Assembly (NCBI GenBank): GCA_973895155.1
Contig: OZ316894.1
Coordinates: 248,001-312,000, forward strand
Source: Marsupella aquatica
Taxonomy: Eukaryota > Plantae > Marchantiophyta
Reading direction: 5' to 3'
DNA: 64,000 nucleotides
The notes under the pieces are model-generated. The model saw only the letters and a program-made list of their open reading frames with translations. It was not told the DNA's origin and ran no database searches. A program made the position numbers and the translations under genes. Of this stretch, positions 3,191 through 61,919 are shown piece by piece. Positions within the stretch are counted from its first letter, which is position 1, and each line of letters begins with the position of its first letter.

Positions 3191-3645
3191 GGGCTTTCCA
3201 TCTGACAGGGACCCGATTCCAGTAACATGAAACAACCAATTTAAACAATAAAAAAGCCACGCATAGTATTCGCAGCATATTTGGAGGACACTAGAAAAAA
3301 GAGAGATGAAAGAAACAATTGTATAGAGGCGGGTTTATATAATTGTGGAGGAGAATAGAACATAAAATAGTAGCGCCAGGCGCTAGCAACACGCGCTACT
3401 TGAAAAAGAAATTACATTGATATCCAGAAGATAATAAAAGTCCATAACCTTCGAGAAAAAGAAATAACCCTAATAACATACTCAAAAAACCTAATGCGAT
3501 AACAAAACGGAAGAAGCAATAAAGCTAACTCGGCCGAACCGGAGCCCCCATTCAAAAAGATGACATGAATCAAACTCATGAACGACTCCAACGATGAGAT
3601 GAAAGCTAGCGCCAGGCGCTAGCGTCGAGAAGAAATCCACACTCT

Positions 3646-4116
3646 CTAGGAAGTAGAAGACAAGCAGTCGTCGTCCAACCCAACTTTGAACCTATCCTCA
3701 TCCTGTCGAAACCCATCCTCTCGATCCAGAAAAAAACGAGGTCTGGGATAGCGACTCCGACTTCGGTCGTTCGGGATGTTCGAATCGGAAAAGCTCACAC
3801 GTCCGGTGTCTGCTTGGATGTCTCTGAAAAAAGCTGTCCTTTCCACCCGATACACATTCGAAGGATCAGGGTCGTGAACAGAGAACCTCTCTCGGAAAGG
3901 AAGTGGAGGCGAAGGATCACGCGATGGAAGGTGTCCAGTTCTGTGGCTAATACCCTCATCCGTGGCCAGCCACAACCTGTTCCTCTCGGTCGACGTCTCC
4001 GGGCACTGTGTAAAAGATGGAGTCAAATCTAAACCCGGATCTCTAATCGACCTCCAAACCATCGCCTTTGGCGGATTGCAGCTCTCCGATTTCGCTATTT
4101 GCTTTCCCTTATCCAT
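3646..4116 (-). CDS. Transposon ORF3, 156-aa protein of unknown function
   Basis: Shares blocks with 46266-46727: TSTERNR..DEGIS/TSTFRNR..DEAIS, SPPLPF/SPLLPF, GRVSFSDSNIPND/GRVDFKDNNIPNE, GLDDDC/GLEDDC. Confidence 0.65.
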   Translation of the reverse strand: MDKGKQIAKSESCNPPKAMVWRSIRDPGLDLTPSFTQCPETSTERNRLWLATDEGISHRTGHLPSRDPSPPLPFRERFSVHDPDPSNVYRVERTAFFRDIQADTGRVSFSDSNIPNDRSRSRYPRPRFFLDREDGFRQDEDRFKVGLDDDCLSSTS

Positions 4117-4577
4117 TCAGTCGATGAAAACAACGGATGCAAAACTCAGGGAGAAGAGAAGAGGTGAGTCCGGGCAGACCAGAAATGAAACAAAGGGAAG
4201 AGGTGAGTCTGGGCAATGCACAAACGAAACGAAGCGAAGAGGTGAGTCGGCGCGTCACAGAAATGAAAGGGAGAAATCCGTTTATGGTTGAACAAACTCG
4301 AAGTTGACCAATCCCAAAGTTCAACAAACACTACACTTTGAGAGAGTCCAAACGATCATATCCACCACAAACCAAAATACGTACAGACTGAAGGTATAAT
4401 TATTCACCGTACAACTGTACGAGTACATGCATTTTTGATATCTGCACAAATATGCACTCAGGAAAGAGACTCCCGGTGCGTCTAACTCATTTAAAGTCTC
4501 AGATCCGAACACCCTGTTTAATAGCGCCGGGCGCTAGTACAAGGTTCCAAAGAAAACCTTAGAAATTCCCAGTCAAC

Positions 4578-7500
4578 CTATTCCAAGTCATAAGACTCGG
4601 ACTCGCTACTGCCAGACCTATCAGTAGACTCAGCTTCGTCATCTATAAATTTGCTTCTAGGTCCATCGTTGAGTAAAGGCTGATGGATGAATTTCCTATC
4701 TGAACCTCTTCTTAACCTTAAGCCCTTACTCTCCCAAGTAAGGGTTCTCCTCTGTTCTTCTTTTCGGGCAGCATATTCTGCATATGATGGCAACACGAAA
4801 GGCTTCTGAGGAGAAACAAGAACTTTTCTCGAGGATTTCCTCCGAAGATTAAAACGTTCTTGAAGATTCCACTCCGATCTGGAAGAGGAACGGAACCATA
4901 TTAGAATTGAAAATGAAAATGGGATAGTAACAAAATCGATAATGTAAAGTGAAGTAGCTTACGGGCATTACTCAGAAGAATCTGAATCTTCTGTTTCTTC
5001 CATCGTATGCCTCTCCTTCTCATCTCCGTCATTTTCCTCTCCTTGTCCTCCTGAAGCATCATCTCCAACAGCATCTCCATCCTCTTCATCTTCAGAGTCA
5101 AAATTTAAGACAGAACGAACTTTATCTTTTTGTTTTCTTCCCACATCTTTAGCGGGAGATGAGGAACTGACATCCTTTGGAATCAATAAATCCATCCATG
5201 TCTTTTCCGCAATCTCAACAAACTCTTTTCGGTTTTCTATACCAAGAATAAAACGTCCACAATAGTCACCAGCAACAAATGTACTTCCCGAACCCACAGT
5301 CCAGTCCATGACAATGTCACCCGGACGAGTGATTAACTCTAACACAGATTGCATGAACCCAACGGACAAGCGTCCATTGCCAGCAAACGCTGCTGAAGGA
5401 GTTGGATCCTTCTTCACACTCGGGAGACCAATAAGGTTAGTGATAGAAGGATCTTCAGTCGCAGAGAGGGGTCGAAACTTGGGGTCCTTTGGAACCTTAA
5501 CCTTTGACAAAATACGACTGAACAGATCCAATCTCAATGTGAAAACCTGTGAAATCCCAACAAAGTCCATTGTTAAGATGCCGACGATCCAACCAGAAAA
5601 TCATTCAAATCATGGCATAACAATGAATTTTGGATAGCGCCAGGCGCTAACAAAGAATATCCCCTTAACTGAAGGGTAATGAAAACATTTTTAGCTAGCG
5701 CTCGGCGCTAACAAAGGACAGCACGAAGAGTGAGAGAATTTACCTGGCAATCACTTCAGGCCATGTACATTGGAACTCCCATAACCACGTTCAGGGTTTT
5801 CACACACTGAAACTTTTGAGACTCCTGGCTCGTGGCAATGACCTGCGAGATCTGATCATACTCGCCAGTATGCAAAATGGCCAATATACCATCATCTGCT
5901 AGAAACGGGTCCATTGCGCGAAAGAATGAACCAACAATTCTGTGATCTGGGGAATTCCATTTTGGAGACTTCTTCTCTAAAAGGGATGGACGCAGTCCAG
6001 TTGGGAGGTAAACGAATCCAGCATCAACTCCAAATGATCTTATCTTTCCTCCTCTTATGACTCCTTTCTCCCTTAGACCAAGCAAGACTAGGTCTTTCAC
6101 CCACTTCTCCACATTTGACACCCAAGCTGGTTTCTGCTCTTTCGTGAACACACTCTCAAAGAAGTCCATTACACTGGACTCAACAAAAACATGCCTAGAA
6201 GTCTTACACTTGAACTGTCCAACATCTCGTTGAACACCAGTAGAAGCGACCGAATCCCGAGAGGAAAATCCATGATCCGAAGATTTCTTTTTCTTCTTCT
6301 TTGTGCTGGTGGCATCTGCAGGTCGCACCATCTTCTCCGTGTTGGGAGGAGTCTGTTCATCAGGGAATCTTGTTCCCCCGTATCAGCTTCAGAGACTCCA
6401 GGAGTGACAGTCGTCTTTGCATCTTGTGTTTCTTCTCCATCCGATTTCCGTCCACCTAGAAAAAGATACAAAAGTTTCCAAGATTACGGTCCACATAACA
6501 CCAGCGCCGGGCGCTAACCAAATTGCACTCCCGGGTGCTAACCAAATAGACAACTTGATCTGCAGCGCTCGTAAAAAAAATACAGAATGCCACTGGAAAA
6601 TAACATAAGCGCCGGGCGCTAACCAAAATGCACAAAAATCAAGCAATAAAGGCACACCAACATATGTGGCGCTTAACAAAAAGTCACCTAAATATCCAAA
6701 CTAGTGAAGAGAAAATACTGAATGCCAATGAAAAATAGAAGAATCTCACGTTTCTTCCCAGATCTCGTTGATGGGCTGGTTACTCCAGTGTCTACTTTTG
6801 CTTTCGCCCTGGGTTTTCGACTCCTGTCTACATGCAAAACTTCTGTTTCGCAATGTTTCTGCAGCTCGCTCGCCGAGGCATCTACATCTTCCGATAAACC
6901 TTGTTTCATTTCAGAGAGAACTTTCCGAGGCACTAAAGACTTTGATAATTTCAGAAATGCATCCTTTTCAGCTTCATCGAAAGGGGTGTCCCACTTATCT
7001 GTGTCAAGATACCATGGACAGTGGGTTATCTCCCACAATGAAATTTCACGTGGTGGAACGTCCCCTTCGGCAGGGTACATTGAGTAAACTTCGCTAGAAG
7101 CATCCCCCTCTAGAACGGACCATTTCTGGAATGCAGGAGGTAAGCCCAAAAATACTCTAGAGAACTGGTCTCCATGGCCATGTAGAAGCGATACAGATAT
7201 CTCTTGGCTCGCTTCTGGTTGCGAATGGTATAGTCTTCCTTGTCTTCGTACTTGGACTGCCAAATTGTGCTAAAAAACTTCGCCTTCACTGTTTCACCGT
7301 ATGTCTTGAAATCATTGGTGATGTTCAAGACCAATGCTTCAAACGTCTCCACTCCTCCTAGCGTTAGACGATCAGCAGGTAGGATCGACTGGACTTGCAA
7401 AAGAGATGTCTGTAACATTGCAATTGCAATTCCTTCCACCAAACTCCACATGTGCCATGTATGACACCACTGTTTAACAGGGTCATCATTCACACTCGGG

Positions 7501-8146
7501 GGATGGTAAAATTGTTTTCTGAGCTCTGGTGTACAGTGAGCGACAAGAAGAGTACAACGTAGTTGTGGATCCAAGTAGGAGACAACAGTGAATAGACGCG
7601 CGCGGTCCATTGTACATACTACAGAGTCCGGCTTCTTTTCTCGTTTGTTCCTCTCCGTAAGAATGTACATTTCTGCACAAGTTGACAGAAAATCACCAAA
7701 CTCTGGGCTTACAGGGGGGTAATCTTGGATGTCTTTATGCTCCACTCCTTCGTTGCCTCCTTCATCATGGCAGCATACCGCTTACCTCGGGGGTTTCACT
7801 TCCACAAAAATGGCATATCACGTGCGACGAATGATAGGGTCATTTTATTGGTTCTAAGGGAAGACTTAAGAATTTTTGTAGAAGAACAATAGGGTCTTTT
7901 AAATTCAATTTTGAGACTTATAAGAACATTAGGGTCTTTTTAATCCAAATTTTAGAATATTCCAAGAATATTCCAACTTTATAGGGGTTAAAAAATAAAT
8001 TTTTTTTCTTACATTTTAGGGGGTCCAAGGCCTAAAAACGTCGCAGGCGATGGGGAGGTCCCCATATAGTGAGACCCCCGAGCCGCTTACCAGTCTCTTC
8101 AGATGACCACGGGCGACCTTGACTTGCCGCAGCAGCCAAGTCAAGC
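4578..8146 (-). pseudogene. 3' part of the spliced ParB-like/DNA-methyltransferase-like gene (diverged copy; frameshifts, stop, MITE and LTR insertions)
   Basis: ORFs 7110-7745, 6688-7263, 5756-6331, 4968-5570 and 4578-4796 are colinear with 47426-50516; GT-AG introns at ~6456-6749 and 5547-5743; motif ELITRPGDIVMDWTVGSGSTFVAGDYCGRFILGIE. Confidence 0.8.
7786..8082. mobile_element. MITE, 297 bp, 15-bp TIR, 8-bp TSD
   Basis: CTCGGGGGTTTCACT...AGTGAGACCCCCGAG; TSD CCGCTTAC at 7778-7785 and 8083-8090; removal restores the reading frame GKRYAAMMKEATKEW. Confidence 0.9.
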
Positions 8147-12808: not shown

Positions 12809-12812
12809 TTTT

Positions 12813-12830: not shown

Positions 12831-12877
12831 GCATTTCTTAAGCCGTGAGATATGAAGTTAGAACGGAAGCGTAGGTA

Positions 12878-44292: not shown

Positions 44293-45862
44293 AGTGCCGA
44301 GCGCTCTTAAATATAACACTCGCAAGATTCAAAGAAGGAACCGGAAAAGAACGAGAACTTACTGATTCACGATGTGCATAGCTGCCTCAATTTCAATAAG
44401 AGATCCCTTGTCTCCCTTAAATATTGTGCAGAGCACTCGAGGATGGTATTTTGGATTGTCCGGGTTCTCCTCGGTAACAAGCGTCCATGAGTACAGCCTA
44501 TGATTTCCATCAAAGACAGAGAACATCTTATCCTTCAATACAAGAAAATCTGGGTCGGCCTCGCATTCAGCCTCAAACTTCTCGTTCTCCAATTGCCAAA
44601 TTGGATCCCATGACTCACGAATCTCCTGGGTACAGGTCAGAACAATTCCATTCTCATCCGTTGGCTGCACATAGAAACACATTCCTATGGATGAATTATA
44701 ACCCATACTGCAAAATGAGTCTTTCAGCTTCTCGATGGAAGAGCTGTCTTTCTGCAAAGTACGAACCACCTCCATGTGAACCAATCAGCATAGAGGGATT
44801 CGAGGCGGCTCCTTGTCAAATCCACGAGAATCCTTTCCAAAACACATGACATGTTTTGAGATGAGATCAGTCTCCACGAGTGCGCAGTCCAAAACATCCT
44901 AGATCACAATCGTGTCGAGGTTCTCCATCTTTCTACGCAGAGATTTAGGAACCAAACAACGCTAACAGAAGTAGGAGGCAACAATTTTGTGGAACGAGTT
45001 ACACGACGTGTATAAACTGAACTAGTAAACGAAGACTACGAGGATTCAGAATAAGCTCGCTCCTGGTCAGGAACTGCACTAACCCTCTGGATGAAGAGGG
45101 GAATACCTCCATCGTCTTCCTTCCAAAAGCGTATGAACTATTGTACAATGAAATTATGGAACTCTAATCAACTCTCAACGTGTAATATATTCTAGAAGGA
45201 GGGTGGAGTTCAGCGGAACTCTTCGATTAAAGCGAGAAGCTCGTAAGTTTGGCGGATTCCAACGTATGTATGCAGAGAACTTAATTAGCTAAATCAAGCG
45301 GTAGAAGAAGTGTAACACACACGGAACTCATAAGTTACTGTTAAATGTTACCGTTATGACCGTTTTCCTCCCTCACTTGGAATACTAGCGTCGGGCACTA
45401 TTATAAACACCGTCCCTTGAAGTAGATAATTGGGATGATTGTCATGGCAGTGCCCGGCGCTAGTAAAAACAACAGCTATAAAATAGGTCTACAATGGTGG
45501 CTCTAGTACATAAATTTCATCAAAACAACCCCCATATTTAAGGAAATGTCTATTGTTTTAATGGTTTTTGGGAAACATTACTTGCATCCTATACTAGCGC
45601 CCGACGCTAGTGAAAACTAGAATTTTTCATCCATAGTTCTAAAAGAGTTCACATTTTCATTGACCATTTAAATCCAATTACCTCATAGTATTGATGTATA
45701 CTGGAGAGTTTTTTCTATACTAGCGCCAGGCGCTAGTATGGAATATCGAGATTTGGGGCACATTATGTTTGAGGTATTTTAGTTAGCGCCATGCGCTACT
45801 CAAATTGTTCCAACTATACAATATCTTAGGGTCTGTTAAAGATTTTTGTGGTGTCTTTTTTG
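44293..45862. mobile_element. Mutator-like copy (outer): ParB exon and left half of the divergent promoter; interrupted by the complete copy
   Basis: Close nucleotide match to 55373-56936; FDGNHR in ORF 44359-44784; continues at 61553. Confidence 0.88.
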
Positions 45863-46265
45863 GGGAATTTACAAACGATAGCAAACAGATAATAGTAACA
45901 GCAAACTGCCATATATAATTGCAAAGTGCATAACGCGTTCGGCGCAGGTCCAACAAACGCCCATATAAGTTACAACCTGCAGGCCTAGAAATCTGATATA
46001 CAGAAGCCACGGTCGACCCCGGCTGAGGATTTCCAGTAAAACAAAAGTAGCGCTGGGCGCTAGCCAAGAACTGCAGGAAAAACTATGGAATTCCTGAAGA
46101 CAACATCTGGGAAAAGTCCTAACAACTAAGCCGAGGGCGACTCCATCCCAAAACATCAAAAGAGCTTAAGCAGCGCTCGGTGCTAGCTTAAAGTGATCAC
46201 CAAACTGAACAATGCGATGCCGTTCTTCGTGAAAAACCGGAGGAACAAGCAATAAGTGATTGCAT

Positions 46266-46727
46266 CTAGCTTTCAGAGTCGCAATCATCCTCCAATCCTG
46301 CCGCTTCTCTCCTCCAATTTTTCTTGAAACCAAGACCACGCAATCAAATGTATCTCTCAGAAGGACCCCGACGCACTGCCCTCGTATAACCTTCATTGGG
46401 AATGTTATTGTCCTTAAAGTCAACTCGCCCAAACATTTCTTGAACTCTCCTATCAATTGGCAGTACACCATCAACAGGAACAGCCTGATGAGACAAGAAC
46501 GTGCTTGCAAATGGGAGCAGAGGAGAATCGACAATCCATGGGATGTTGTTTTCTCCAGGACTAATAGCCTCATCATACGGTAGAGCGTGACGGTTCCGGA
46601 AAGTAGAGGTTTTAGTTTCCTCAGTCTCCATCTGTGACTCAAAAAAACTGAAATGGCTCTCTTCTGGACGCACACGAGAAGGGAGGAACGTTGCCTCCCA
46701 ATCCATGAGCTCACCGTTTCTCACCAT
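46266..46727 (-). pseudogene. Transposon ORF3 (premature TGA at 46344-46346)
   Basis: Homologous to 3646-4116, including GLEDDC beyond the stop. Confidence 0.65.
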
Positions 46728-49700
46728 GTTTAATGAATCCAATCTAGTGGCAACTTTCCCTTTGAAAAAATGCGAAAACTGTTTGCAAAAGGCCCGCAAA
46801 GGTTTGAAAATGGTCGTGGGTCCGAAAGATCTCGTCTGGGAGGAATGTCTCCCTCGAAACACCCGAAATGTATCTCCAAAAAAGGGGCCGCAATCGGGTG
46901 TCTGTCCCAAAATAGTCGCCTGTCCAAAAACTTGTGGTCCGCGACAAGTGTCGTCCTTGAAAACCGTCATCAAAAAGAGATCCTAAAATATCGTCCGAGA
47001 GAGATGCCGCCAACAAGAGATCCTAAAATGTCGTGCAAAAAAGTTGTCAACAAGAGATCCGAATGTCATCCAAGAGATCCGAAAATGTCGTCCAAATATA
47101 GCCGATGTGGGTATCTTTGGAAAACTAATGGACCTAAATGAAATGGCCGTTGGTATCCGAAACGTCTATTATACTATGTATTTACTACTATTTGTCTAAT
47201 TATGATGACCGTTGGTAGGACACGACAAAGACCAAACGGCCGTGTTACACAAAGAAGAGCTGGAAATATTTACTTTACGAATCACCATTTGGCGAGCGCC
47301 TAGCGCTTCTAAAAACACAAGGAATCAGACATTAATTTAGAAGGAGTCAATGAGAGGATTTGAATACAAGTTGGTACTACGCCAGGCGCTGGTAAAAAAT
47401 TACTCCCTAAACTCCTCAATACGTGTCACAATTCTGCAGATTCTGATTCGGAACCAGAATCTGAACTCTCGGATTTGTCCGTGGACACAACCTCATCATC
47501 TATGTACTGGCTGCGGGAGAAGTCATCAACAGAAGGATGTTTCATGAACATCCTATCAACACCCCTTCTTAACCGAAGACCTTTGTTTTCCCAGCAAAGC
47601 GTCCTTGTACTCTCGGCTTTCCTTGCGGCTTTCTCTGCATAGGAGGGAAGAACAAAAGGTTTTTCTGGTGTTTCTATGTTGTGTCTAGCAACCCTCCTTC
47701 ACAGTTTGAAACGTCTCCTTGCATTCCACTCTGACCTGATCAAACAAAATCCAGCAAGTTAGGAGCCTCGGTTTCATCAGGAGATCATCACTCTCGGTTT
47801 CATCAGGAGATCGACGAGGTTCTTCCTTTTCCTCCTCCGAGTCCCTTGTACCTTGTTCATCTCCATCTCCACTTTCACTGGACTCATCACCAGAATCAAA
47901 ATTGAGTACCGACCGAAGCTTATCTCGCTTCTTTCTGTCGGCAATAGGAACAGGTGGAGGTAAAACCACAATCTCTTTGGGAGACAACAAATCCATGAAA
48001 ACCTTTGAAGTGGTTTCAATAAATTCTTTTCTATGTTCTATCCCGAGCACAAACCTCCCGGAGAAGTCTCCAGCAATGAAGGAGCTTCCAGCCCCAACGG
48101 TCCAATCCATAAAAATATCACGAGGTTGGGTGACAAGCTCTATGACAGATTGCATAAAACCAACAGACAGGCGAGCATTTCCAAAAAATTCCATTTGCGG
48201 GAATGGATCGGATTTGAGAGAAGGGAGTCCGATCAAATTGGTGACCGAGGGGTCCTCACTAATGGAGAGTGGACGGAATTTAGGGTCTTTGGGAATTTTG
48301 CATTTCCCATTAATTCGACCAAATATGTCCAGCCTGAGGGTAAACATCTGCGGAAAGCAATCCCAAGTGTCAGTTGGCAACTCCAAGTTAAACGAGTTAT
48401 ATTTCAAAATGCGACATTGTTAAGAGTACATAATTACCTGACGGTCTGTCTTTGCAGCGTACATCGCGACAGACATTACAACATTATGCGTGCATGCATA
48501 CTGAAATTTTCTCGATTCCTGACAGGCAGCAATGACTTGAGACATGGGATTGTACTCCCCATTGTGTAGAATTGCTAGGAATCCATCATTTGATAGAAAT
48601 GGATCCATGGACTTGAAAAAAGATCTAGCCATGGAGTGATCTGGAGTGTTCCATTTAGGAACCTTCTTATCTATGATTGTTGGTTTGAACCCGGTCGGTA
48701 GGTAAATGAAACCGGCATCCACTCCAAACGATCTTTCTTTTCCTCCCCGCACAACACCCTTCTCTTTATATCTCGACTTAACGAGATCCTTCCCCCACTG
48801 CTCCACATTACTAACCCAATCAGGTTTTTCCCCCTTGTTGAAAGTCGAGTCAAAAAATTTGGATATGCTTGTCTCAACCATGGCATGATGAGACACTCTA
48901 GTTTTGAAGTTTCCAACTTCACGTTGGACACCAGATGCTGCAACACTCTCCCTTGTAGAAAGTCCACCTTCAATAGCTCGCTTTCGTTTCTTCCTAGTAC
49001 TTGTGGCGTCAACCGGAACTATTACTTTCCCCTTGTCGACAGGAGTAATGGGGTCCAATTGGGCTCCGGTGTTTGCCTCAGAAACTTCAGGTGTAGCATC
49101 TCCAAATTATATCCCGTTCCTTTAGTATCTCCTGTTCCCGCTGTATTAGACTTCCTCCCTCCTAAATTATCAATAGGTCCTAGTTAGAACAAGTAAATCC
49201 GGAGTATTGAAACAAGCTAGCGCCAGGCGCTAACCAAATGAAAATCACTTAGGTCTCAACAAAGGCCTAAGAATCTAGAAAGAAATGTGAATTCGAATGA
49301 CAGTTCTAGCCAGCACTAGGCGCTGGCCAAACCACGGAACATTATACTCACTTTTCCTCCCAGATTTCGTTGACTCACTTGGTGCTGCTAACTCCGCTTT
49401 TGCTTTCGCTCGAGGTTTTTGACTTCGGTCCACATGAACAATAGTCATTTCACAAATACTTGGCAAGTCTGTTGCAGACTTGTCTACATCGTCTATCAGG
49501 CCCTGCTTCATGTCGGACACAATTTTTGCTGGTATGTGGGACTTTGAAAGCTTGTGGAATGCATCTTTCTCCTTTTGATCAAAAGGAGAATCCCATCTAT
49601 CTGTATCTAGATACCATGGGCAGTGAGTTCTCTCCCATTCTGTCATAGGTCTCGGAGGAAATATGCCCTCCGCTGGGTACATGGAGTACAAATCAGCTAT

Positions 49701-50689
49701 AGCGTCATCCTCACTTATTGTAATCCACTTCATGAAAGTTGCAGGATATGCCCAAAAGTAATCAGGTTTGGTTACCTCCATGTGCATGTAGAACCTGTAA
49801 AGATACCTTTTAGCCCGCTTCTGGTTTTTTTGGGTGTAGTCTTCTTTGTCTGGATACTTTGAAGGCCACATCGTGTGAAAGAACTTACTCTTCACAGAAT
49901 CACCATATCTCTTGAATTCATTTGTAACAAACTGAACGAGATCATCAAACGAACCACAATTCCACTCTTCTAATCTAGTCGCGGGCATCGTCTGCTCTAC
50001 TTCACGCAGACATGAATGTAACATGCCGACAACAATTCCCTCTACACTATTCCAAGTGATCCAAGTATGACACCATTGTTTGACTGGGTCGTCGTTAACA
50101 CTTGCCGGGTGGAAAAACTGTCTCCGCAGCTCAGGATTGCAATGTGCCACAAGTAGGGTGCTTCGCAACTTTGGGTCTAGGGCAGAAACAACAGTGAACA
50201 ATCGGGCGCGGTCCATTGTACATACGACGGCGTCAGGCTTCTTCTCTCTCTTGTTTCTCTCTGTGACAACATACATTTCTGCACATGTACTAAGAAAATC
50301 TTCAAATTCAGGACTTAACAAGGGCGTAATTTTTGAGGACTTCACTGCCCAGTCTTTGGTTGCGTCCCTCATCATGGCCGCATGGCGTTTGGAAATCTCG
50401 TCCACCGACCAGGGACTCCCTTGAGCCTTGGCTGCCTCCATATCAAGCTTGAATTGGTGAGAATATGACTTTATCTTATTCTCACATAGAATGTAAACAA
50501 GAGCTTCCTGTGACATCTTCTTCGTATACCATGACCCCTTCCGAGTCTTTAGCCGAATGCTCTCAATCTTCTTGAAATTAGCTGGATCAATCAGTTTACT
50601 GTAATACTCAAGGTCATGCGCCAGAATTTGTTTGATTCTATCTGCATCGAGAATCCAGGATGGCTCAACAACGGCTTGGCCAAGCCTAC

Positions 50690-53600
50690 TGTGATGCCTA
50701 GACAGGAATCACTCGGCCGGTTAAGTGGGTAAAGCAGGAAGGCACCCTAGGAACACCTTAGTATAGTGACAAAACAAGGAAAATATAAACAATTAGGGGC
50801 AACCATGGAACCCGGGCAGAGGCCGGAGGTAAGGCTGAGGGTGAAAACCCGATTAGGGTTAGGGCGCGTTAAGCGTCGGCGGCTAGGAAGGATCAACGGG
50901 AAGAAGGACCGGCAGAGGAGAGGGGTAAGGAGCGCTTGCAGGAGATGGTGGCTCATTTGCGAGCACGAACTAGGCAGACGACTACGGGAGGCCAACTACT
51001 GTCAGCTGCTTAGGCAAGCACTCGGGGAGAGAGTAGATACCGACGATCAACCTAAGGAGGGTATGAGCAACGTCAATCAAGCGGCACATTTCTGGGGATG
51101 CCTGTTCGAACGGGCAACTGAGTACATCAAGACTTACGAGGACGAGGAGTCAGAAAGGGCAGCTCGAGAACGGCAGGAGCTCGCTCGATTGTGGGAGCTG
51201 CAGAAGACGGCTTTCTTAGGAGGCGAACTCATCAAGGACGAGTTCCTGTGGACGCCTACTTCCAATCAACTCGACGATCTTCTGTTTTGCAAGGACAGCG
51301 TCGTCGGCATCCGAGAGGCCATCAAGAACTGCAACGACATACACTGGGAATTAAAGGGTAGCACGGAAAGGTGGACCCAGGCAACGGTGCTAGGAGAAAC
51401 CTCCACGGCAGCAGAGATGAAGAGGAAGGGAGCCGTCAACGATGAAGCCACCCCGGCAAAAAGAACGAGGTCGGCGGCACCAAAGAAGCCAGCCGAGCAG
51501 CAGAGCAGGAGGCAGGGAGAAGCCGAAGAGGAGGAGGTCGATCCCATCAAGGCCATTCCAACCAGGGATGACACCTGGAAGGGCTGGGCGGCAACCCTAC
51601 CGGTGGAGGTGCAACTACATTTTGCACGGGAGGAGGATGCATGCTTTACGGCCATGCAGACCAAGAAGTACCAAGGCTTCATGGCCGGATCCGGCTTGGA
51701 GGCCTTTGTAAGATTACCATGGCTGAAGCCGGAGGTACCGGAGTCAAACCTATTAGAATTCGTGGGGTCATGGGAACCCGAGACCAATTGCACGAGGATA
51801 TATGGGAAGGATTTCTATCTTACTCCCAAGGTGATTGCCGAAGTGTTTGGCTTGCCGATGGGCAATAAGACCAAAGTTGATACCAGGAAGACCTTGCCTG
51901 ACAAGGAGTTCCGGTCGTTCCCCGGGCCATCAACGAAGAATGGCTTCTTCCGGAACACCTGCACCAACCCGCACATAGGAGAGATGATCGACTTCTTGCG
52001 GGTGACCATGCATTGTAACTTGCCGAGGGCAGAGATCGGCAAGGCACAGGTCTATCTGGCAGAAAGGCCAGACCCAAGCCGGGACTACAATGGGTACCTC
52101 CTCAACCAATTGAAGAAGATCTTAAAGGAGGAGCAGCAGGTCATCGGCATGGGGAGCGTGTCGCGGCTTGGCTATCACATGCCGCTGTTGTGCCGGTATG
52201 CCAGAGGTCAGACTTTTGCCCCGGTACTTCCCCTGCAGGTAAGGGCACCCGAGGAAGCTCCAACGCCGAGGCCGTTGGCTGAGAAGCCTCAACCACCTGT
52301 TAGTCCTATGATCGAGCAGGTGTTTAGGCCCAGGAAGGAAGACTTGCCGATGCAGCAACCAGGCATGCAGAGTCTGCTGAAACTACTGGAGAAAGAAAAG
52401 AAATCGGCATCGGCAACAACAACGGCAACGGCAACAATGCAGGACACTACTACAGAGGTAGGCCGACACCGGCTCACAAGAGAAAACCCCTTTGCTGGAG
52501 ACAAGGAGAGAATCAGGCCGGAATCCAAGCCAGGTGTTCGAATGTACGTGGGAACCTCAAGCTCCGAATCTGAGGCAGAATTGCCTGAAGCTCCTACCGA
52601 GGAAGAGGAGAGGGAGAAGCCGGAAATCCAAGAGGTAGAGGAGGCAGTGGAGGGCTGCAGCCATGATAATTCCGGCTATGGGTCGGACCATCACGTTCCA
52701 GGAGTAAGGACCTGTGGCCGGTTTGTCCCCACACTTCCAAGGGTAGTGCGAGGGGACCCCAACCAGCAGAGTAGCCCTGAGTCTCCCCCACCAGATGTTG
52801 CTCCCCCGAGCTTCGACGGCATAAAACAGACGGTGCAGGAATTTCAGGAGCGAATCAAGCAGGAGGAAGAGGCCGCCCTGGCTAAGGAAAAGGATTTACC
52901 AGGAGGAGATTGGCCGGAGGACATCAGGCGGCTAGCCGAAAAAGGAAGCAAACCTCTAGCCACGATTGAAGAGATCCGCAGGACGGCTTGGGAGCAGAGG
53001 CCACGATGGGCGATGCCGATCACTTCTACTTACTCCACCTACGCTAAGAATAGAGCCATGGAGTATGGTGAGATGTGTGGGGAACTTGCGCTCGGCATCT
53101 TTGGAGAGGAGTTGGAGGTAGGACCCTTTTTCCATAGGGAGCAGTTGGAGAAGCACCAATTAGAAGAAGCGGTGGCTTTAGAGAGAAGCAAGAAGGACGA
53201 GGTCATTCGGCGGCTTAGGAGGATGGGAGCCGAGATTGAAGATCTAAGGGCGGCCAAGAAAGCCCAAGATGAACTGCGGATTAAACGACATGAGCTGAAC
53301 ATCATGCAGGGGCAGTTGGACGCCGCGCAGGCTGATAATCAGAATATCAAGGATAAACTGACTCAGACGCAGGAAGAGTTGGCCGACACGATCAAAGAGA
53401 GGGAGAAGTGGAAGCAAGAGCTGAAGAATACAGAGGAGGCCCACATAACAGCCAACAGCCGGGCCATGGCGGAGACCCAAAGAAAGGAATGGGCGTTGAA
53501 AGGGGAGCTCGAGAAAATCCGCGGAGCCCTTGAGCAGAAGGAGGTCGAGTTAGGGAAATCCTATCAAGGGATTATGGCGCTGCAGCAGGAGCTTGCGTCC

Positions 53601-55319
53601 CTGACGGCCAGCTTCAAGGCCGACCTAAGGGAGAAGGACGAGATGCTCGAACAGACTTACGCCAAGATGAACCAGATGGAGTCTGTCATCATTGCAGAGC
53701 TCGACAAGGAGCTAAGAGCAACCCAGGAGGAGAAGGCTACCTTGAAGAAGGAATTGGAGGAAGCCCACAGGGAGCAGGAGGAGGCCAAAAACGAGCTGGA
53801 GGGGGCACGTAAGGACCTGGATGAAACCCAAGAGGAGTTGGAGGAAATCACGAGGAAGATGGAGAACCTACAGCGGCGGGCCGACAACCAAACAGAGCGG
53901 CTGAAGAAACAAGCCGCAGTATTTAAATGCTTAGCTGCAGCAGGTCCATCTCCTGTTGGGACAAACCAGTTACCAGGGGTGGTAATTGCCGAAGGACAAG
54001 CCGCGCCACCTGCACCAGTGCCGGAATTAAGTGGGAAGGGGAAGGGACCCGAGCCACCAACGAAGAAGAAGCGGAAACCTTCAGGGTCAAGGAGTAATAC
54101 GACTTCACAGGCCGTGGTGATCAAGGAGGTAGACCCAGCACCGACCCCAGACAGGGTCACGGCTAAGGATCCAACTACCCTAGGGGAAGGGGAAGCCGAA
54201 GCCGAGGGAGTGGCTGAGGCCGAAGCCGTGGGTATTGTCGAGGCCGGTGTCGAGGCTGAAGCCAAAGGTGGACCCAGTCAGGCCGAGGGAGAGTTGACTC
54301 AGTCAAGGGCAGGTAATCTGTCAGTAGGCGGGCCAACGGCAGTGGCTGAGGAGGAAGTGTTGGGGGCGTCCATTGAGGATCCACCACCGGTGTCGTGACG
54401 GTGCAAGGGCGCCGTTCCTTTTAGGGAGGGCGGACGTGGAGGGAGGAGGCGTGAGTGGGCAGGGCGGGCGCGGATCTCCACGTTTAGGATTAGGATCAGA
54501 ACCAGGAGCGGCCCTGACACTTAGCTTAGTGGGATTGCGGTCCCACTGGTAGGAGCAACACTTGTGCTCCTGCCTTGCTGTACATAGGTAGATTCAGGCA
54601 AGTAGATTACTGTTAAGTAGATTAGGCTTACGATGCAAAGAATGGCGGATCCACTACCAGGATAAGTACCTGGGCAGCGGGGAGCTCAGGGCCTCTTCTT
54701 TAGCAAGTTTTTAGTTTGCACCAGCCGGGCTGGGATCAAGTAGTACGAGAAGCTCTCGGTTAGTCATACAATGACCCTTGTGTATATTCATGTTTCCTCA
54801 TGCCTAAGAGCTGAATAGAGTTGGCCTCACGGCTTAGTTCGCAGAACTTGTGTATGAGATGTACTGTTTGTATGGCAAGTGCATGGTATGACTCAGTCAG
54901 AATGAGTCATTTTGCTATTTGTGTGTCGCATTAACTTGTGTGAAGAGTGCCCACATCAACAGAAGGAAGGAAAGTAAGCAGGGGAGTGAGAGTTGGATGT
55001 GTCGAGCTGAGAGAGGTCTTAGCGGCTTAACCAAGCCTATTGGGGATCATTCCGGCGGCGGAATCCAAACATACCTAACAAGACGGAGGGGAAGACAGGG
55101 GAAGACAGGGGAAGGCCTATATTAGGCCGGCTACGTATCTCATGACCCGATGAAGGATCTGTCCAGTATATGTGTGTAAAATGTTAATAGTAGTAGTAGA
55201 AGGTTAGCAGCGTCCCATGCCGCTAAGCCGCGGAAACGGCCTCGCCAAGCACGAAACCTGCGGGAATCGGCTTGAGCTGGGGGGTTTCTTGGGTTTAGGG
55301 AGCCATGGGACGCACCACA
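50690..55319 (+). mobile_element. Solo LTR of family A (4630 bp) with 5-bp TSD
   Basis: CCTAC|TGTGATGCC...GCACCACA|CCTAC. Confidence 0.96.
50805..54398 (+). CDS. Intact 1197-aa LTR-encoded protein: Arg-rich N-terminus, plant-mobile-domain/Athila-ORF1-like core, long coiled coil, KKKRK, acidic tail
   Basis: Open frame from GCAACCATGG; EFVGSWEPETNCTRIYGKDFYLTPKVIAEVFGLP resembles the PMD W.PET...T..D/V....GLP pattern; no evident transmembrane segment. Confidence 0.85.
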   Translation: MEPGQRPEVRLRVKTRLGLGRVKRRRLGRINGKKDRQRRGVRSACRRWWLICEHELGRRLREANYCQLLRQALGERVDTDDQPKEGMSNVNQAAHFWGCLFERATEYIKTYEDEESERAARERQELARLWELQKTAFLGGELIKDEFLWTPTSNQLDDLLFCKDSVVGIREAIKNCNDIHWELKGSTERWTQATVLGETSTAAEMKRKGAVNDEATPAKRTRSAAPKKPAEQQSRRQGEAEEEEVDPIKAIPTRDDTWKGWAATLPVEVQLHFAREEDACFTAMQTKKYQGFMAGSGLEAFVRLPWLKPEVPESNLLEFVGSWEPETNCTRIYGKDFYLTPKVIAEVFGLPMGNKTKVDTRKTLPDKEFRSFPGPSTKNGFFRNTCTNPHIGEMIDFLRVTMHCNLPRAEIGKAQVYLAERPDPSRDYNGYLLNQLKKILKEEQQVIGMGSVSRLGYHMPLLCRYARGQTFAPVLPLQVRAPEEAPTPRPLAEKPQPPVSPMIEQVFRPRKEDLPMQQPGMQSLLKLLEKEKKSASATTTATATMQDTTTEVGRHRLTRENPFAGDKERIRPESKPGVRMYVGTSSSESEAELPEAPTEEEEREKPEIQEVEEAVEGCSHDNSGYGSDHHVPGVRTCGRFVPTLPRVVRGDPNQQSSPESPPPDVAPPSFDGIKQTVQEFQERIKQEEEAALAKEKDLPGGDWPEDIRRLAEKGSKPLATIEEIRRTAWEQRPRWAMPITSTYSTYAKNRAMEYGEMCGELALGIFGEELEVGPFFHREQLEKHQLEEAVALERSKKDEVIRRLRRMGAEIEDLRAAKKAQDELRIKRHELNIMQGQLDAAQADNQNIKDKLTQTQEELADTIKEREKWKQELKNTEEAHITANSRAMAETQRKEWALKGELEKIRGALEQKEVELGKSYQGIMALQQELASLTASFKADLREKDEMLEQTYAKMNQMESVIIAELDKELRATQEEKATLKKELEEAHREQEEAKNELEGARKDLDETQEELEEITRKMENLQRRADNQTERLKKQAAVFKCLAAAGPSPVGTNQLPGVVIAEGQAAPPAPVPELSGKGKGPEPPTKKKRKPSGSRSNTTSQAVVIKEVDPAPTPDRVTAKDPTTLGEGEAEAEGVAEAEAVGIVEAGVEAEAKGGPSQAEGELTQSRAGNLSVGGPTAVAEEEVLGASIEDPPPVS

Positions 55320-56191
55320 CCTACACGAAGAGATGCAGCGAGTTAGAGTCGAAGTACAATTTATGTATAACCAGCGCCGAGCGCTCTTAAATAGAACACT
55401 TGCAAGATTCAAAGAAGGTACCGGAAAAGAACGAGAACTTACTGATTCACGATGTGCATAGCTACCTCGATTTCAATAACAAATCCCTTGTCTCCCTTAA
55501 ATATTGTGCAGAGCACTCGAGGATGGTATTTTGGATTGTCAGGGTTCTCGGTAACAAGCGTCCATGAGTACAGCCTATGATTTCCATCAAAGACAGAGAA
55601 CATCTTATCCTTCAGCACGAGAAAATCTGGATCGGCCTCGCATTCAGCCTTAAACTTCTCGTTCTCCAATTGCCAAATTGGATCCCATGACTCACAAATC
55701 TCCTGGGTACAGGTCAGAACAATTCCATTCTCATCCGTTGGCTGCACATAGAAACGCATTCCTATGGAGGAATTGTAACCCATACTGCAAAACGAGTCTT
55801 TCAGCTTCTTGATGGAAGAGCTATCTTTCTACAAAGTACGAACCACCTCCATGTGAACAAATTGGCATAGAGGGATTCGAGGCGGCTCCTTGTCAAATCC
55901 ACAAGAATCCTTTCCAAAACACATGACATGTTTTGAGATGAGATCAGTCTCCGCGAGTGCGCAGACCAAAACATCTTGGATTGCAATCGTGTCGAGGTTC
56001 TCCATCTTTCTACGCAAAGATTTAGGAACCAAAACAGCGCTAACAGAAGTAGGAGGCAGCAGCTTTGTGGAACGAGTTACACGACGTGTATAAACTGAAC
56101 CAGTAAACGAAGACTGCGAGGATTCAGAATAAGCTCACTCTTGGTCAGGAGCAGCACTATACCCTCTGGATGAAGAGGGGAATACCTCCAT

Positions 56192-57149
56192 CGTCTTCCT
56201 TCCAGAAGCGTACAAACTATTGTACAATGAAATTATGGAACTCTAATCAACTCTCAACGTGTAATATATTCTAGGAGGGTGGAGTTCAGCGGAACTCTTT
56301 GATTAAAGCGAGAAGCTCGTAAGTTTGGCGGATTCCAAGTATGTATGCAGAGAACTTAATTAGCAAAATCAAGCGGTAGAAGAAGCATAACACACACAGA
56401 ACTCATAAGTTACCGTTAAATGTTACCGTTATGACCATTTTCTTCCCTCACTCGAAATACTAGCGCCGGGCGCTATTATAAACAACTTCCCATGAAGTAG
56501 ATAATTTGGATGATTGTCATGGCAGCGCCCGACGCTAGTAAAAATAACAGCTATAGAATAGGTCTGAAATGGTGTCTCCAGTAAATAAATTTTGTGAAAA
56601 CAACCCCATATTTGAAGAAATATATATTGTTTTAATGGTTTTTGGGAAACATTACTTGCATCCTATACTAGCGCCCGACGCTAGTGATAACGGGTATTTT
56701 TCATCCATAGTTTTAAAATAATTCACATTTTCATTGATCATTTAAATCAAATTATTCCATAGTATTGATGGATATCTGGAGGGTTTTTCGTATACCAGCG
56801 TCTGGCGCTGTATGAAATATCAAGATTTGGGGCATATTATGTTTGAGATATTTTAGTTAGCGCCAGGCGCTACTCAAATTGTTCCAACTATACAATATCT
56901 TAGAGTCTATTAAAAATTTTTGTGGTATCTTTTTTGGCATTATGTACGTGTCTGACATCCGGACTTATCGGGGAAAAACGACAAAATTCATTTATGGCGC
57001 CAACGGATCCTATGTCGACTATGTTTTATGTCTTACACAAACGGATATGTTAACGTGAAGTTCCCATGTTCGACTGATATAAGCTCCATATTACCATAGA
57101 CTTTTCTTCCTCGAAACATTACAGCCCTCGTTATTTGTTTTCGATTGCA
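56192..57149. promoter_or_regulatory. Divergent promoter region with five TAGCGC-NNN-GCGCTA palindromes
   Basis: Lies between the two ATGs; palindromes at 56461, 56523, 56669, 56796 and 56858. Confidence 0.7.
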
Positions 57150-60100
57150 ATGTCTCGGTCCATCGTTCTATCCTGATTCGGGACTGGGGATATTGTGACC
57201 ATCCCCGTCCCTGTGGAAGACACGTACAAGCAGGTCCGGGAGAGATACCTTTGCGAGAGATTTGATTTGAAGATGAATGATATTGAGGCCATTCTTCGAG
57301 AGCTCAAAACCAGTGATGACATTGAAGATGCAACAACATTCAATGTGGATGATGGTGAACGATTTTGGCATCTATATGCAGGGATTTTGTACTCACTTCG
57401 AGTAAGACACCATGAAGGACCGTCCAGTGTCCCCCAAGTTCCATTTGATGTTGTCGAGATTTCTTCTAGTGAAGATGGGGATCACACTCCAAGTCCTACG
57501 TTGAAAATGAAAGTCCCGCAACATGCTATTGTTAAAGGTGAGACTCTAGGAAGCTCCAACCAGTTGGAGGTCGTGTATCGGCGCAGTGTGATTGATACGT
57601 TACTCAAATCCACTGGTCATAGCGAGTTATCAAGGTTCATATCAGCGGGTGATTTCAGACATGAGCAAGTCTCCTGTCTGCCAACTAAGTATAATGGGAA
57701 CGTCGTGTTTGAATTGCCACCAATTGACAAGATGCTCTCTAAAGGCTTTAGGCTTAGGGACATGGACCGTGCCAAAGATTGCTACATTTGGACACGCATA
57801 TTTCCAACTACCGCGAACGTCCAGCCAAAAAAACTTTGGCAATTCGGTAAGGTTACCTGTACGGGATTCATTGAATGTCGGAACAAGTCTTGCGAGTACT
57901 TCCAAAGGAAGAATAAGGCAAATGCTAAGGCATGGCAGGGTACTCCAAAGCTTAGTGGTCAGTATGCTGTCGGATCTTTTATCGAAGAGGGCGGTGTTGT
58001 GTGTCATTATTGTGATCAGATTCCTTTTTGTGTCAAGTACTTCCCTGCCCGGTTGCTCTATATGTACCTGCAAGTATTACTTGATGCGGACACATGTAGT
58101 CATATGTCCCACCTGGCAATTCATATATAGGTGAGCATAACCATCCAGGTAGAAAAATCTTCTGTAGGAGTGCGAAGAAGATGGCTGAGGATTTAATTTA
58201 AAAAAATCATGAAGCCAATCCTCTGGCAAAACCAGTTGGGATCTTGAATTCTGCTATAGGCCTGGGTCCATAGTGAAAGCTATCTGCGAACATGTTGACG
58301 ACATGGTTGATATTGAAGAAACTGAAATATGGAAGTCTCTGATGGTACTTTCCACTCCCCATAAGTTTGCATCTCTTTGTCGAAGCGTTAGGATAGACCA
58401 AAAGGGTCGGGGTGAACTTGATTTTCTATCGCAAATGCAGAAGAAGATTAACCTGTCGTTTCTCCAGAGGTATTTGCTCCCAGGTCAGGGATGTCAAGAG
58501 GACAGGCCTCACATCTTTAAAATGACCACGAAGGGTCACGGTTCCGGTGTGGATCTTTTGAGATAGATGCAACCTGGTGGAAGACTCGAAGGAGCCTGGG
58601 TCAGTTTCGATGTCATGCAACATATCACAACCGATTGGTTTACTTTTAGCGCACATGTCTACGACCATAACTTCCGTGCACTTTGTACAATTTTCACATG
58701 CGAGTTGAAAGGTGAAGACACTGAGTCTTTCGGAAAGGCTTGGAGAGTTATGATTGAGGTTTGCAAGGAGAATGGATTACATGAGGTTGTCATCCAAGGG
58801 TTTATGGCGGACAATGCATAAGCTGGATGGAATGTTGTGCGGAATGTTTTTTTGGTGGACACCCAGACCCGGAGAGGGAGCGCTCTGATGCATTTCACTT
58901 TTATCAATCTTTCCATCGGCATTCCAAGGAAGGAGTACTCGAAGAATGTCAATCGGAACATCGGAGACTTTGGGAGAAACTAAGAAACGCTCCAACGTTT
59001 GTGGTAGCCTATCGCGTGTCCTGAGAGATTGTGGTTTGGTGGCAATCAGGAAATTGTGTCCCTGGAAAGCTCATGATGCTACAAAGCTGGATATCCCGCT
59101 GGGTTGTTTGATGGTGCTAGTGGGGAAATTTTATTCAAGTGGTATGACAACCATCTCCTCTCTTGTCTTTCATTTCCATCAACTTTATATTAGCGCCAGG
59201 CGCTGGTATGATTTGCTCGTATTTGAGTCCAACATGTCCATAAAGTTCCAGAATCATACTTGCAATTGTATTTCACGTATGTTATAAATACTTGTCGGTG
59301 TCAGCGCCGGGCGCTGGTAATACAATGCTAGTACTGATTATTGCATTTGGACTATGGCAGAGCAAAAGCGCAGAAGAAGGTGCCTTGATTCCCAACTGTA
59401 CAGGGTCAGAATCAAGGCATGCGTCTATGAAAGCCTGGGCTACAAAGAAAAAAGTTGGTCTTTTTGAAGCATGCAAAGTGGACCAAAACCGAGCCTTGTC
59501 TCAAGTTGCGGGATACAGTGCATATTGGAAAGGGTTGAACAGAGGAAAGGGACCAACTATATGGGAATTGGCGTTCCGTTCCGCCGATCAAGCAGGTTCG
59601 CCGAGGTTATTTGAAGATGTGACCAACATGCTTCTTTCCAACGCGGCGGACTTTGATTTGGAAAGAAGTACTCCCCTTAACGGAGATATTGTGACCAAGT
59701 CAATGAAGAGAAAGGGACATGCAACTGGGACTGTCTCTCCACAAGACTCCCACCGGCATGACACCGTTCTCATAACCACACCAAATACTCGTGGTTTGAA
59801 AAGGAAAAACCTAAACAGAACTGACTTTGCCTCCATTCCCTCAAATTCTAATGATCCTGTGACAAGAGTGGTGAATCTCTCTGGTATGGACACATCAGAT
59901 GGTGATACTGATTCACTGGACAATACCCCTCAAACAACCCGTACAACAAGATCCACAAAACCTCCACTCAGTGCACCAGCCTCACTTCAAAATCCACTTC
60001 CACGGACGATTGTGCTAGAAAAGGATGTCCCTCTGGGGCAGTGGCAGCTGCGACGGACGTCCAAGTATGGAGCAGGTCCCCAGTGTAATGGGACACTCAA

Positions 60101-60882
60101 TGGGAGTTCTGATCACAATGAGTGTCGAAATCGTATCAAGAAGGTTGGCTTCCATTCGTCTGACGGTGTTGTTGGAATTGTTGTGAAGGGCCATCGTCTC
60201 TTCAGGGGCGAACCAATCTCCGGAATGATTTGGTTCTGCCCAAACCAAACCTGTTATAAGAGTCGTCCGTGTCGTGGTGTTCATCAGCTTCCTCCTCTTC
60301 CTGAAATTTTGCCTGTTTTGAACGGTACGAGCCTATCTCCTTCTGAAATCACGTTCCTCGAGGAGCAAGGACTTGTCTTAGCCCGAATCGAGTCGATCTA
60401 TGCCATCTTTGTTTGACCTCAGGATAAATGTGAACGTGTTCCCAGAAACGATAAGGTTTTTGGAGCCAAATGTCCGGCTGGGTAGTCGGAATGGGAGGAA
60501 CTCAAGACCTCGGTCTAATCTCACTGTGGGTCACACTAAGCGAATGGAGTCTGCACGACAAGAAGAGATGAGTTTGGATGGGGAATGGAATGTTCGGACT
60601 GGAAATGCTTTTGGAAAACAATTTCAAATTTGAACCCATGAGAACCTTCGATCACCAAGCACGTACTTCATGCAAATCTGTATCTTCCCTGCTTGCTCCT
60701 GTGAGGACTTCTTCCTATGACATTCGCGTGGCAAGTCGTACATGCCTTGTAAACATCTATACTGGGTGTACATAAATGTTTTCAAACTTGAGGTTGAGGA
60801 GTCGACTCTTTGTAGCCAACCAATTTGGACTGTGGGCGAAGTCAGGCTTGTCTTGGAGAGGCAGAACTTGAATGGCTTATAA
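57150..60882 (+). pseudogene. MULE/MuDR-like transposase with Cys-rich N-terminus and C-terminal SWIM finger; several stops and frameshifts; intron ~59141-59360
   Basis: VSFDVM, GFMADNA-AGWNVVRNVF, ERERSDAFHF, PNCTGSESRHA, CSCEDF..PCKHLYWV. Confidence 0.82.
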
Positions 60883-61552
60883 TAGGGGCCGAAACTTCCG
60901 TATAGGTCGTTCAATATAACGGATAGTCACTATTTTGTCTTTACCGAACGGATATGTTACTTGTTTTATTCAGTATTTTTTGGTTAGCGCCGGGTGCTGC
61001 TTCCAAAAATCTTATTTTTCTTGCTTTTTTATGTACGCGTGTAGTGTAAGCATTACAACATGTTTTATTTAAAATGTGTAAGTTGATATCATTATGTTTT
61101 ATCTTTCAAGCCACGTTTATTCAATTATTCTGAAATGAATTGTTAGGTGGTGTTTTGTCATTTGTTTGTCACGGTACTCGGTCCATTTAAGTGAACTCAT
61201 TTTGATTGAGTTCATTTGGACACTACTCTTCACTTGTTTTGTGGTGGGTCCCACCCTAAGGTTCACTTTTTAGCTTGGACGAATAGTGATATTTGAATGA
61301 ATGTTTCATTGAGTATAGTCCCCATACCGTGTTATTTATATACCCTAAATAATTGTTTGTTTTAAACCTAATTCACTAAAGAAAAATTCTGTGATTAGCG
61401 TAGTTTTTCATTCGGACCAAAGGGCTATGGTTGATGCAAAACTGGTAACAGGGAATCGCTTATTGGTAACAGTTAAATTTGACTGTTAACAGCAAAAAAT
61501 TTCCTGGTAACAGGTTTTCTGTTTTATGTTTTCTGTCATGGCTATCATACCC

Positions 61553-61880
61553 TCTTTTTTGGCAGTATGTATGCGTCTGACATCCGGACTTATCGGGGAA
61601 AAATGACAAAATTCATTTATGGCGCCAACGGATCGTATGTCAACTATGTTTTATGTCTTATACAAACGGATCTGTTAACGTGAAGTTCCCAGGTTCGACT
61701 AATATAAGCTCCATATTCCCATAGAGTTTTCTTCCTAGAAACATTACAACCCTCGTTATTTGTTTTCGATTGCAATGTCTCGGTCCATCGTTCTATCCCG
61801 ATTCGAGACTGGGGATATTGTGACCATCCCCGTCCCTGTGGAAGACACGTACAAGCAGGTCCGGGAGAGATACCTTTGCG
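61553..61880 (+). mobile_element. Continuation of the outer Mutator-like copy (promoter right half and transposase 5' end), truncated
   Basis: Duplicates 56928-57255. Confidence 0.88.
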
Positions 61881-61919
61881 ATCAGCCTATTCATTAAAAG
61901 TGTATTATTATTTGATTTA

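Follow-up and report, generated by a model that had tools for sequence, protein, structure and literature searches.

We analyzed a 64,000-nucleotide stretch of the liverwort Marsupella aquatica genome (contig OZ316894.1, positions 248,001–312,000; hereafter the window, in whose coordinates all positions are given). It contains a Mutator-like DNA transposon that carries, divergently from its transposase gene, a five-exon gene fusing a ParB-like domain to a methyltransferase-like domain. The noncoding DNA of this element and of its relatives in the window is studded with copies of a palindrome, AGCGCCNGGCGCT. We propose that the product of this helper gene binds the palindromes, may spread from them as a nucleotide-gated clamp, and shields or switches on other members of its family by means of a probably inactive methyltransferase fold, a reading to which we give an even chance.

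A Mutator-like Transposon Carrying a Fused Helper Gene

The element extends from 45863 to 61552 (table 1). Its target site duplication (TSD), claimed in the original prediction, is real, because the 9-mer TCTTTTTTG occurs on both sides of the element and once only at the matching, unbroken inner junction (56928–56936), which corresponds to the empty site. Self-comparison aligned 42816–45863 with 53880–56937 and 61553–61881 with 56928–57256: The element lies within an older copy, itself a member of the family. The insertion point (45854–45863) lies in the divergent promoter of that older copy, about 60 bp from a palindrome, a single case of possible self-targeting. The ends of the element are weak inverted repeats of about 45 bp, whose score was reached by 21 of 1,000 shuffles.

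The SWIM-type Mutator-like element (MULE) transposase announced for this element corresponds to a broken gene at 57150–60882, interrupted by stops and frameshifts. A SWIM-type motif, CSC..PCKH, is visible by eye at about 60690–60760, with a Pfam SWIM match under the cut-off (E 0.84), and the broken pieces matched no MULE family when scanned against Pfam, PHROG, and NCBIfam. Candidate D, D, DxxH, and E residues, of the kind that defines such transposases, were also picked by eye. Mutator-like nevertheless appears to be the best class for the element, an assignment resting on these by-eye motifs and on TSD length, with weak profile support: Its TSD of 9 bp falls within the 8–11 bp of Mutator-like elements (PMC6446971), and its terminal inverted repeats (TIRs) of about 45 bp are degenerate. 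In each of four public sequencing runs, contigs are present for every one of the 30 bins into which the element was divided, and their depth, which is not a copy number, suggests an amplified family.

The helper gene runs on the minus strand from 56191 to 47427. Exon 1, which includes the sequence VFDGNHRL, is joined in frame to exon 2 (MHIVNQ/LGQAV, donor GTAAGT), and the motif T-P-D-I-MDWTVG lies in exon 4, all as first described. Intron 1 is long only because a solo long terminal repeat (LTR) sits at its acceptor; one contig of run X2 joins 50684 to 55320, that is, without the solo LTR. The donor position of intron 1 is identical in the four metagenome loci with an exon-1 match, and the same position is where 41 of 117 short homologues stop; intron 1 is therefore old. 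Contigs of runs X1 and X2 with a depth of about 2200–2300 lack exactly 48348–48437, the 90-nt intron 3, and represent either an intron-less subfamily or spliced RNA. The copy studied here is broken by two stops in exon 1 and a frameshift in exon 3.

That the two domains belong to one gene is supported by a homologue in another liverwort. Riccia sorocarpa KAL3677308.1 (P0162), a single gene model of 1,207 aa, is colinear with exons 1, 2, and 4 and contains the whole fusion. Among neighboring Riccia locus-tag pairs picked from the match lists, the ParB part adjoins the methyltransferase part in seven of seven.

Purifying selection has acted on the helper gene. A diverged copy had been described at 4578–8146. 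Its methyltransferase part is indeed present, but the copy has no ParB exon. A Gypsy insertion truncates it within exon 2, at 8146, and it reaches further, to a TIR-like left end at about 2803. Between the inner and the diverged copy, the proportion of synonymous differences (pS) in exons 2–5 is 0.75–0.92, that is, saturated, for a proportion of nonsynonymous differences (pN) of 0.21–0.27; exons 3 and 4 have pN of 0.24–0.25 and pS of 0.75–0.85. For the ParB exon, comparison of the inner copy with the older host copy gave a dN/dS of 0.17 over 129 codons. The helper gene had therefore been under selection, although this copy is now broken.

The ParB-like Domain

The structural model of exon 1 (pLDDT 91) was compared with 48,161 chains, and all 13 chains with Z ≥ 2 have the ParB/Srx fold, an assignment based on chain titles and on the families to which these proteins belong. 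The best structural match is KorB (Z 7.8, root-mean-square deviation [rmsd] 2.6, 91 residues aligned), and the leading rows of a Foldseek search are ParB, Noc, and sulfiredoxin (E 0.04–0.09). The ParB/Srx fold first suspected from DGNHR was thus found by structure. Sequence searches of the Protein Data Bank (PDB) for ParB returned nothing significant, with weak profile matches to DUF1015 (E 0.019, one of nine members) and DGQHR (E 0.029). Atlas matches of exon 1 to DUF3723 (0.95) and to a cluster with ParB_N on 11% of its members (0.93) are leads only; a literature search found no paper joining DUF3723 and ParB.

The ParB/Srx motif Gxx(R)R, with an upstream R and a downstream N, is represented by a conserved variant, V-R ... 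DGNHR ... N. Among homologues, R56 is kept in 91 of 105, G141 in 110 of 116, R144 in 99 of 115, and N187 in 83 of 100. KorB requires R117 and N146 (PMC11790492), which correspond to the exon-1 box by motif and not by superposed residues.

The model of the Riccia fusion protein (pLDDT 63, whole-model pTM 0.47) aligns over nearly the full length of three two-domain ParB structures: Caulobacter ParB (176 of 180 residues, Z 9.0, rmsd 6.1), Myxococcus ParB (190 of 194, Z 8.8, rmsd 5.4), and 6sdk (196 of 199, Z 8.6, rmsd 6.1). These matches span residues 20–380 or so of the model, with overall Z of 8.6–9.0 and rmsd of 5.2–6.1. From this alignment, a predicted ParB-type DNA-binding domain is placed in the first half of exon 2 as a moderate match. 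Exon 2 of the Marsupella gene had no match among proteins of 824–2350 aa, and its Atlas matches were all below 0.85.

A Predicted Methyltransferase Fold with a Degenerate Catalytic Motif

The beta-class amino-methyltransferase fold of the original prediction is supported. Pfam N6_N4_Mtase matches exon 4 (E 0.0029) and the diverged copy (E 1.5e-8), and the C-terminal part of the Riccia fusion aligns with CcrM, MboIIA, and PvuII (Z 7.9–8.1, rmsd 4.4–4.6, 170–189 residues). PHROG and PDB sequence matches agree with this class, as does the permuted layout, in which the catalytic strand precedes motifs X-I-II.

Active enzymes need the catalytic motif [DNSH]PP[YFW] (PMC4738411). Motif IV, whose register rests on the alignment to Riccia D-x-P and on domain order, has the form YLPT, which fails this pattern, in the two copies of the window as well as in the relatives P0183 and P0194; all 17 Riccia proteins where it was found have D[LM]P[ST]. 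Motif I is altered too, being DWTVGAG here and DFAGGWG in 14 of 18 homologues. Because motif IV is degenerate, methyl transfer seems unlikely in this lineage; one fern form may be active.

These motifs bear on the self-marking role originally proposed. In one version of it, the protein would be an amino-methyltransferase that works with an atypical catalytic site, writing N4-methylcytosine (4mC) or N6-methyladenine (6mA) at or around the palindrome, thereby marking its own element and blocking 5-methylcytosine (5mC). The fold matches to CcrM, MboIIA, and PvuII, the conservation of motifs X-I-II, and the DVPF of one Adiantum homologue speak for such an enzyme. In addition, the core of the palindrome is CCNGG and bacterial N4C enzymes recognizing CCSGG exist (PMC8885841), and 4mC is written by an enzyme of bacterial type in a liverwort (bioRxiv 2021.02.12.428880). 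However, YLPT has neither the polar first nor the aromatic last residue, the aromatic residue is absent from all 17 Riccia motifs found, and motif I has changed as well. We consider this explanation unlikely.

A Palindrome Dispersed in Noncoding DNA

Allowing up to two mismatches, AGCGCCNGGCGCT matches the window 29 times against 1.27 expected, a count reached in none of 100 shuffles. These are candidate sites for the loading of the protein onto the element that had been postulated. Fifteen lie in the element, six in the older copy, and eight in the diverged copy, with none elsewhere in the 64 kb. All 29 fall outside the exons as drawn, the one at 46172 lying in an open frame but in its tail, which is not conserved. 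Noncoding DNA totaling 5152 bp contained 23 palindromes, versus a mean of 0.02 in 200 resamplings. They were retained in the diverged copy despite the saturation of synonymous sites. We gave no weight to the likeness of AGCGCCNGGCGCT to the KorB OB site TTTAGCGGCTAAA (PMC11790492).

The palindromes might instead serve transposition: Bound by the helper protein or by the transposase, they would join the weak ends or steer integration, with no role in silencing. The degeneracy of the ends fits this explanation, as does the insertion close to a palindrome of an older family copy noted above; mudrB is reported necessary for integration (PMC6446971), and a Mutator transposase can act sequence specifically on its own copies (bioRxiv 2026.08.24.746577). 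However, the palindromes are found in introns and in the internal promoter and are not clustered at the ends. Moreover, a related SWIM transposase relic at 38146–39528 (minus strand, about 40–45% identical, with CSC..CKH present) has no palindrome within 36.5–41 kb, even at three mismatches. A cofactor of this kind is, in our judgment, about as improbable as an active methyltransferase. Still less credible is a KorB-like repressor dampening the divergent promoter and limiting the activity of the element, as five of the 15 palindromes between the two start codons and the top match of exon 1 to KorB, which silences at long range (PMC11790492), could suggest, for other ParB-fold chains score within 1 Z unit of KorB, contig depth suggests an amplified family, and repression leaves the conserved methyltransferase fold unexplained.

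Relatives and Origin of the Cassette

A profile search with exon 1 returned 436 clusters at E ≤ 0.001, and 18 of the 20 that were looked up come from R. sorocarpa or Adiantum. With the methyltransferase profile, 25 of 27 matches are Riccia gene models. One Adiantum capillus-veneris protein, KAI5065344.1 (P0146), joins the same ParB-like domain to an FCP1/NIF phosphatase domain (E 2.4e-12); the ParB-like domain may thus have other partners, or this gene model may be chimeric.

Prokaryote genomes gave one weak match among 84 candidates (L005) and no close donor, and phages gave three records of 46 aa at E 4e-3. Viral contigs contained no relatives with two alignments and no paired palindrome. 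In metagenomes, exon 4 had no match and exon 1 was found in four loci too short to show a transposase, none with an exact AGCGC-N3-GCGCT. The weak prokaryotic match, at 4362–5822 of L005, is a gammaproteobacterial open reading frame (ORF) of 486 aa with VFDGNHRL and a short local match to the plant family; it adjoins a predicted C5 cytosine methyltransferase (motifs by eye). Since no close prokaryotic donor was found, the findings suit an ancient cassette handed on between transposons of eukaryotes no less than a fresh capture. That a plant element took the module straight from a prokaryote, as inferred in the original prediction, is not shown by these searches; similar cassettes already exist in brown and red algal transposons.

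Comparison with Known Systems

The ParB-methyltransferase architecture of transposons is already in print for algae. Sola1-1_Ec32 of Ectocarpus has a gene for a 1,104-aa protein with ParB-like and N4C/N6A methyltransferase domains on the strand opposite to the transposase, and this accessory protein was proposed to bind and modify its own element (PMC12477816, which cites Iyer et al. 2011 among reports of similar algal proteins). Compared by description, the Marsupella gene likewise has both domains in one ORF antisense to the transposase. In contrast to this brown-algal element with its Sola-1 chassis, 4-bp TSD, and 282-bp TIR, the family described here occurs in land plants, with a 9-bp TSD and a SWIM-type transposase, and adds a degenerate catalytic motif and dispersed palindromes. 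Red-algal Plavaka genes PAG2 and PAG3, and also Chondrus Mutator elements, encode PF01555 methylase and ParB-like domains (bioRxiv 2025.02.11.637652). Plavaka elements resemble ours as giant DNA transposons with three accessory genes and inverted repeats proposed as ParB sites. These red-algal elements differ in having separate genes (methylase plus SET; ParB plus 2OG oxygenase) and tandem repeat arrays beside PAG3 in place of single intron sites.

In the VANDAL elements of Arabidopsis, VANC21 binds to a short motif found between the genes and within the introns of the element that encodes it (PMC5735166). VANDALs too belong to the Mutator superfamily and carry additional genes, and their noncoding DNA, in their case including the termini, is enriched for a short motif. 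VANC proteins are, however, of the DUF1985/DUF287 type, for which a Pfam scan of our exons and homologues gave no match, their motifs are nonpalindromic, 8–9 bp long, and in tandem repeats, and their function is proven where ours is inferred. With the bacterial CTP clamps ParB and KorB, the helper protein would share the predicted N-terminal and DNA-binding domains, in that order, and palindromes across a mobile element (PMC11790492); it departs from them by DGNHR in place of GERRxR, large helical insertions, a C-terminal methyltransferase fold, and no ParA partner seen. Marchantia DN4MT1 and bdelloid N4CMT also represent the bacterial-type beta-class amino-methyltransferase fold in eukaryotes (bioRxiv 2021.02.12.428880, PMC8885841), but they are host genes with an intact SPPY and proven activity, and no ParB domain is described for them in the passages cited.

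A literature search that covered few subscription papers found no land-plant report of a ParB-methyltransferase transposon gene. As far as this literature goes, novelty lies in the occurrence in land plants, in a Mutator-like chassis for the fused gene, in the ParB match over two domains, in the degeneracy of the catalytic motif, and in the exact dispersed site.

Proposed Mechanism

In the clamp model that we favor, a dimer of the helper protein would recognize AGCGCCNGGCGCT as ParB recognizes parS. The symmetry of the palindrome would suit a ParB dimer, and its placement resembles that of VANC21 sites. A nucleotide bound at DGNHR could then shut the clamp, which would spread along the element. 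As for the methyltransferase fold, it may bind DNA, S-adenosylmethionine, or chromatin factors without methyl transfer, and this binding might hinder 5mC silencing by the host, as VANC proteins do by other means. More broadly, and rather tentatively, transposons of seed-free plants might run a parS/ParB-type system in the nucleus, with the clamp towing a dead methyltransferase fold that blocks or reads cytosine methylation.

Several observations weigh against this model. The Foldseek E-values for exon 1 are only 0.04–0.09, and Pfam scans of the exons and homologues gave no ParB match. The two-domain ParB match was obtained with a Riccia homologue 26% identical to exon 2, at rmsd 5–6, Z below 10, and pTM 0.47. 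The catalytic glutamate of the ParB motif GERRxR is not evident in DGNHR. Two fern (Adiantum) homologues have DVPF or DFPI at motif IV. Finally, the transposase could be the ligand of the palindrome, and 20 of 22 palindrome mismatches are C>T or G>A, so that copies of the family were probably methylated despite the helper gene.

Other Features of the Window

The third ORF of the element is conserved in the diverged copy (42% aa identity over 110 codons, pS 0.76, pN 0.44) and matched no family in Pfam-type scans. Tandem units of about 40 bp lie between it and the helper gene (46946–47096).

Table 1. Features of the Transposon and Related Copies in the Window.
Feature	Position	Strand	Remarks
Mutator-like DNA transposon	45863..61552		15.7 kb including solo LTR, about 11 kb without; GGG...CCC ends
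Left 9-bp TSD, TCTTTTTTG	45854..45862	+	Single copy at unbroken junction 56928–56936
Right 9-bp TSD, TCTTTTTTG	61553..61561	+	
Left degenerate TIR	45863..45907	+	End of diverged copy at 2803 resembles both ends
Right degenerate TIR	61508..61552	-	Shuffle comparison of ends
Palindrome AGCGCCNGGCGCT, 15 copies	46049..60998		46049, 46172, 47295, 47378, 49219, 49312, 55373, 56462, 56524, 56670, 56797, 56859, 59192, 59303, 60986
Third ORF	46281..46720	-	Frameshifted; conserved with 3664–4011
Helper exon 5	47427..47735	-	Basic then acidic tail
Helper exon 4	47790..48347	-	Acidic linker and motifs X-I-II (DWTVGAGS); approximate 3' end with a disturbed donor
Helper intron 3	48348..48437	-	GT-AG intron of 90 nt; missing from the deep contigs of X1 and X2
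Helper exon 3	48438..49161	-	Linker and N-terminal half of methyltransferase; YLPT at 48693–48704; one frameshift; 5' end approximate
Helper exon 2	49352..50685	-	Helical region; first half aligns with ParB DNA-binding domain in Riccia homologue
Solo LTR of Gypsy family 8147–23492	50690..55319	+	4630 bp, TSD CCTAC; inside intron 1 at acceptor; later insertion
Helper exon 1	55443..56191	-	ParB/Srx domain; DGNHRL at 55571–55588; two stops
Divergent promoter region	56192..57149		Five palindromes: 56462, 56524, 56670, 56797, 56859
Broken Mutator-like transposase	57150..60882	+	Cys/His-rich N-terminus, candidate D-D-DxxH-E residues, SWIM-type motif near end
Older host copy, left part	44293..45862	-	ParB exon and promoter, six palindromes; 93% identical to inner copy
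Older host copy, right part	61553..61881	+	Transposase start; 95% identical to inner copy
Diverged family member	2803..8146	-	Part of exon 2, exons 3–5, third ORF, eight palindromes, TIR-like end

The Gypsy element (8147–23492) and the solo LTR have LTRs of 4.6 kb, each with a long ORF for a coiled-coil protein. This ORF, of 1,215 aa, is open in the solo LTR at 50751–54398, and its Pfam matches are weak coiled-coil ones only. Contig depth over the Gypsy element is about 40–50 times that over the DNA transposon. Related LTRs are inserted in all three helper-gene copies; their insertion sites differ, which rules out the 4.6-kb repeat as a site-specific element of the helper gene. A pair of plus-strand ORFs (39409–41910) that overlaps the transposase relic resembles the LTR ORF.

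Downstream of the older host copy lies an AT-rich array of about 22-bp units (61900–62250), and at 62551–64000 (minus strand) there is a piece of a DUF7869 protein (Pfam E 2e-36), which presumably represents the transposase of another element, by which the older copy is truncated. The window also contains a triple repeat of 411 bp (35462–36692) and an open gene of 1,167 aa of the PPR-E-DYW type (28725–32228, minus strand), likely an organellar RNA-editing factor of the host and in itself a sign of land-plant DNA.

Implications

For the algal ParB-methyltransferase accessory genes, a function is so far a proposal in the passages cited (PMC12477816, bioRxiv 2025.02.11.637652). For a test, the Marsupella family provides a precisely defined candidate site for binding, a match to ParB over two domains, a catalytic motif from which no methyl transfer is expected, and relatives in one liverwort and in ferns. 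Should the protein methylate DNA after all, plants would have a source of 4mC or 6mA that is carried by a transposon. A clamp loading at the palindrome would amount to a ParB clamp in a eukaryote, one whose load site is defined, and its antisilencing would be independent of VANC. If this clamp keeps the element unsilenced, it would represent a second route of plant transposons past 5mC and a candidate tool for sequence-targeted changes of the epigenome.

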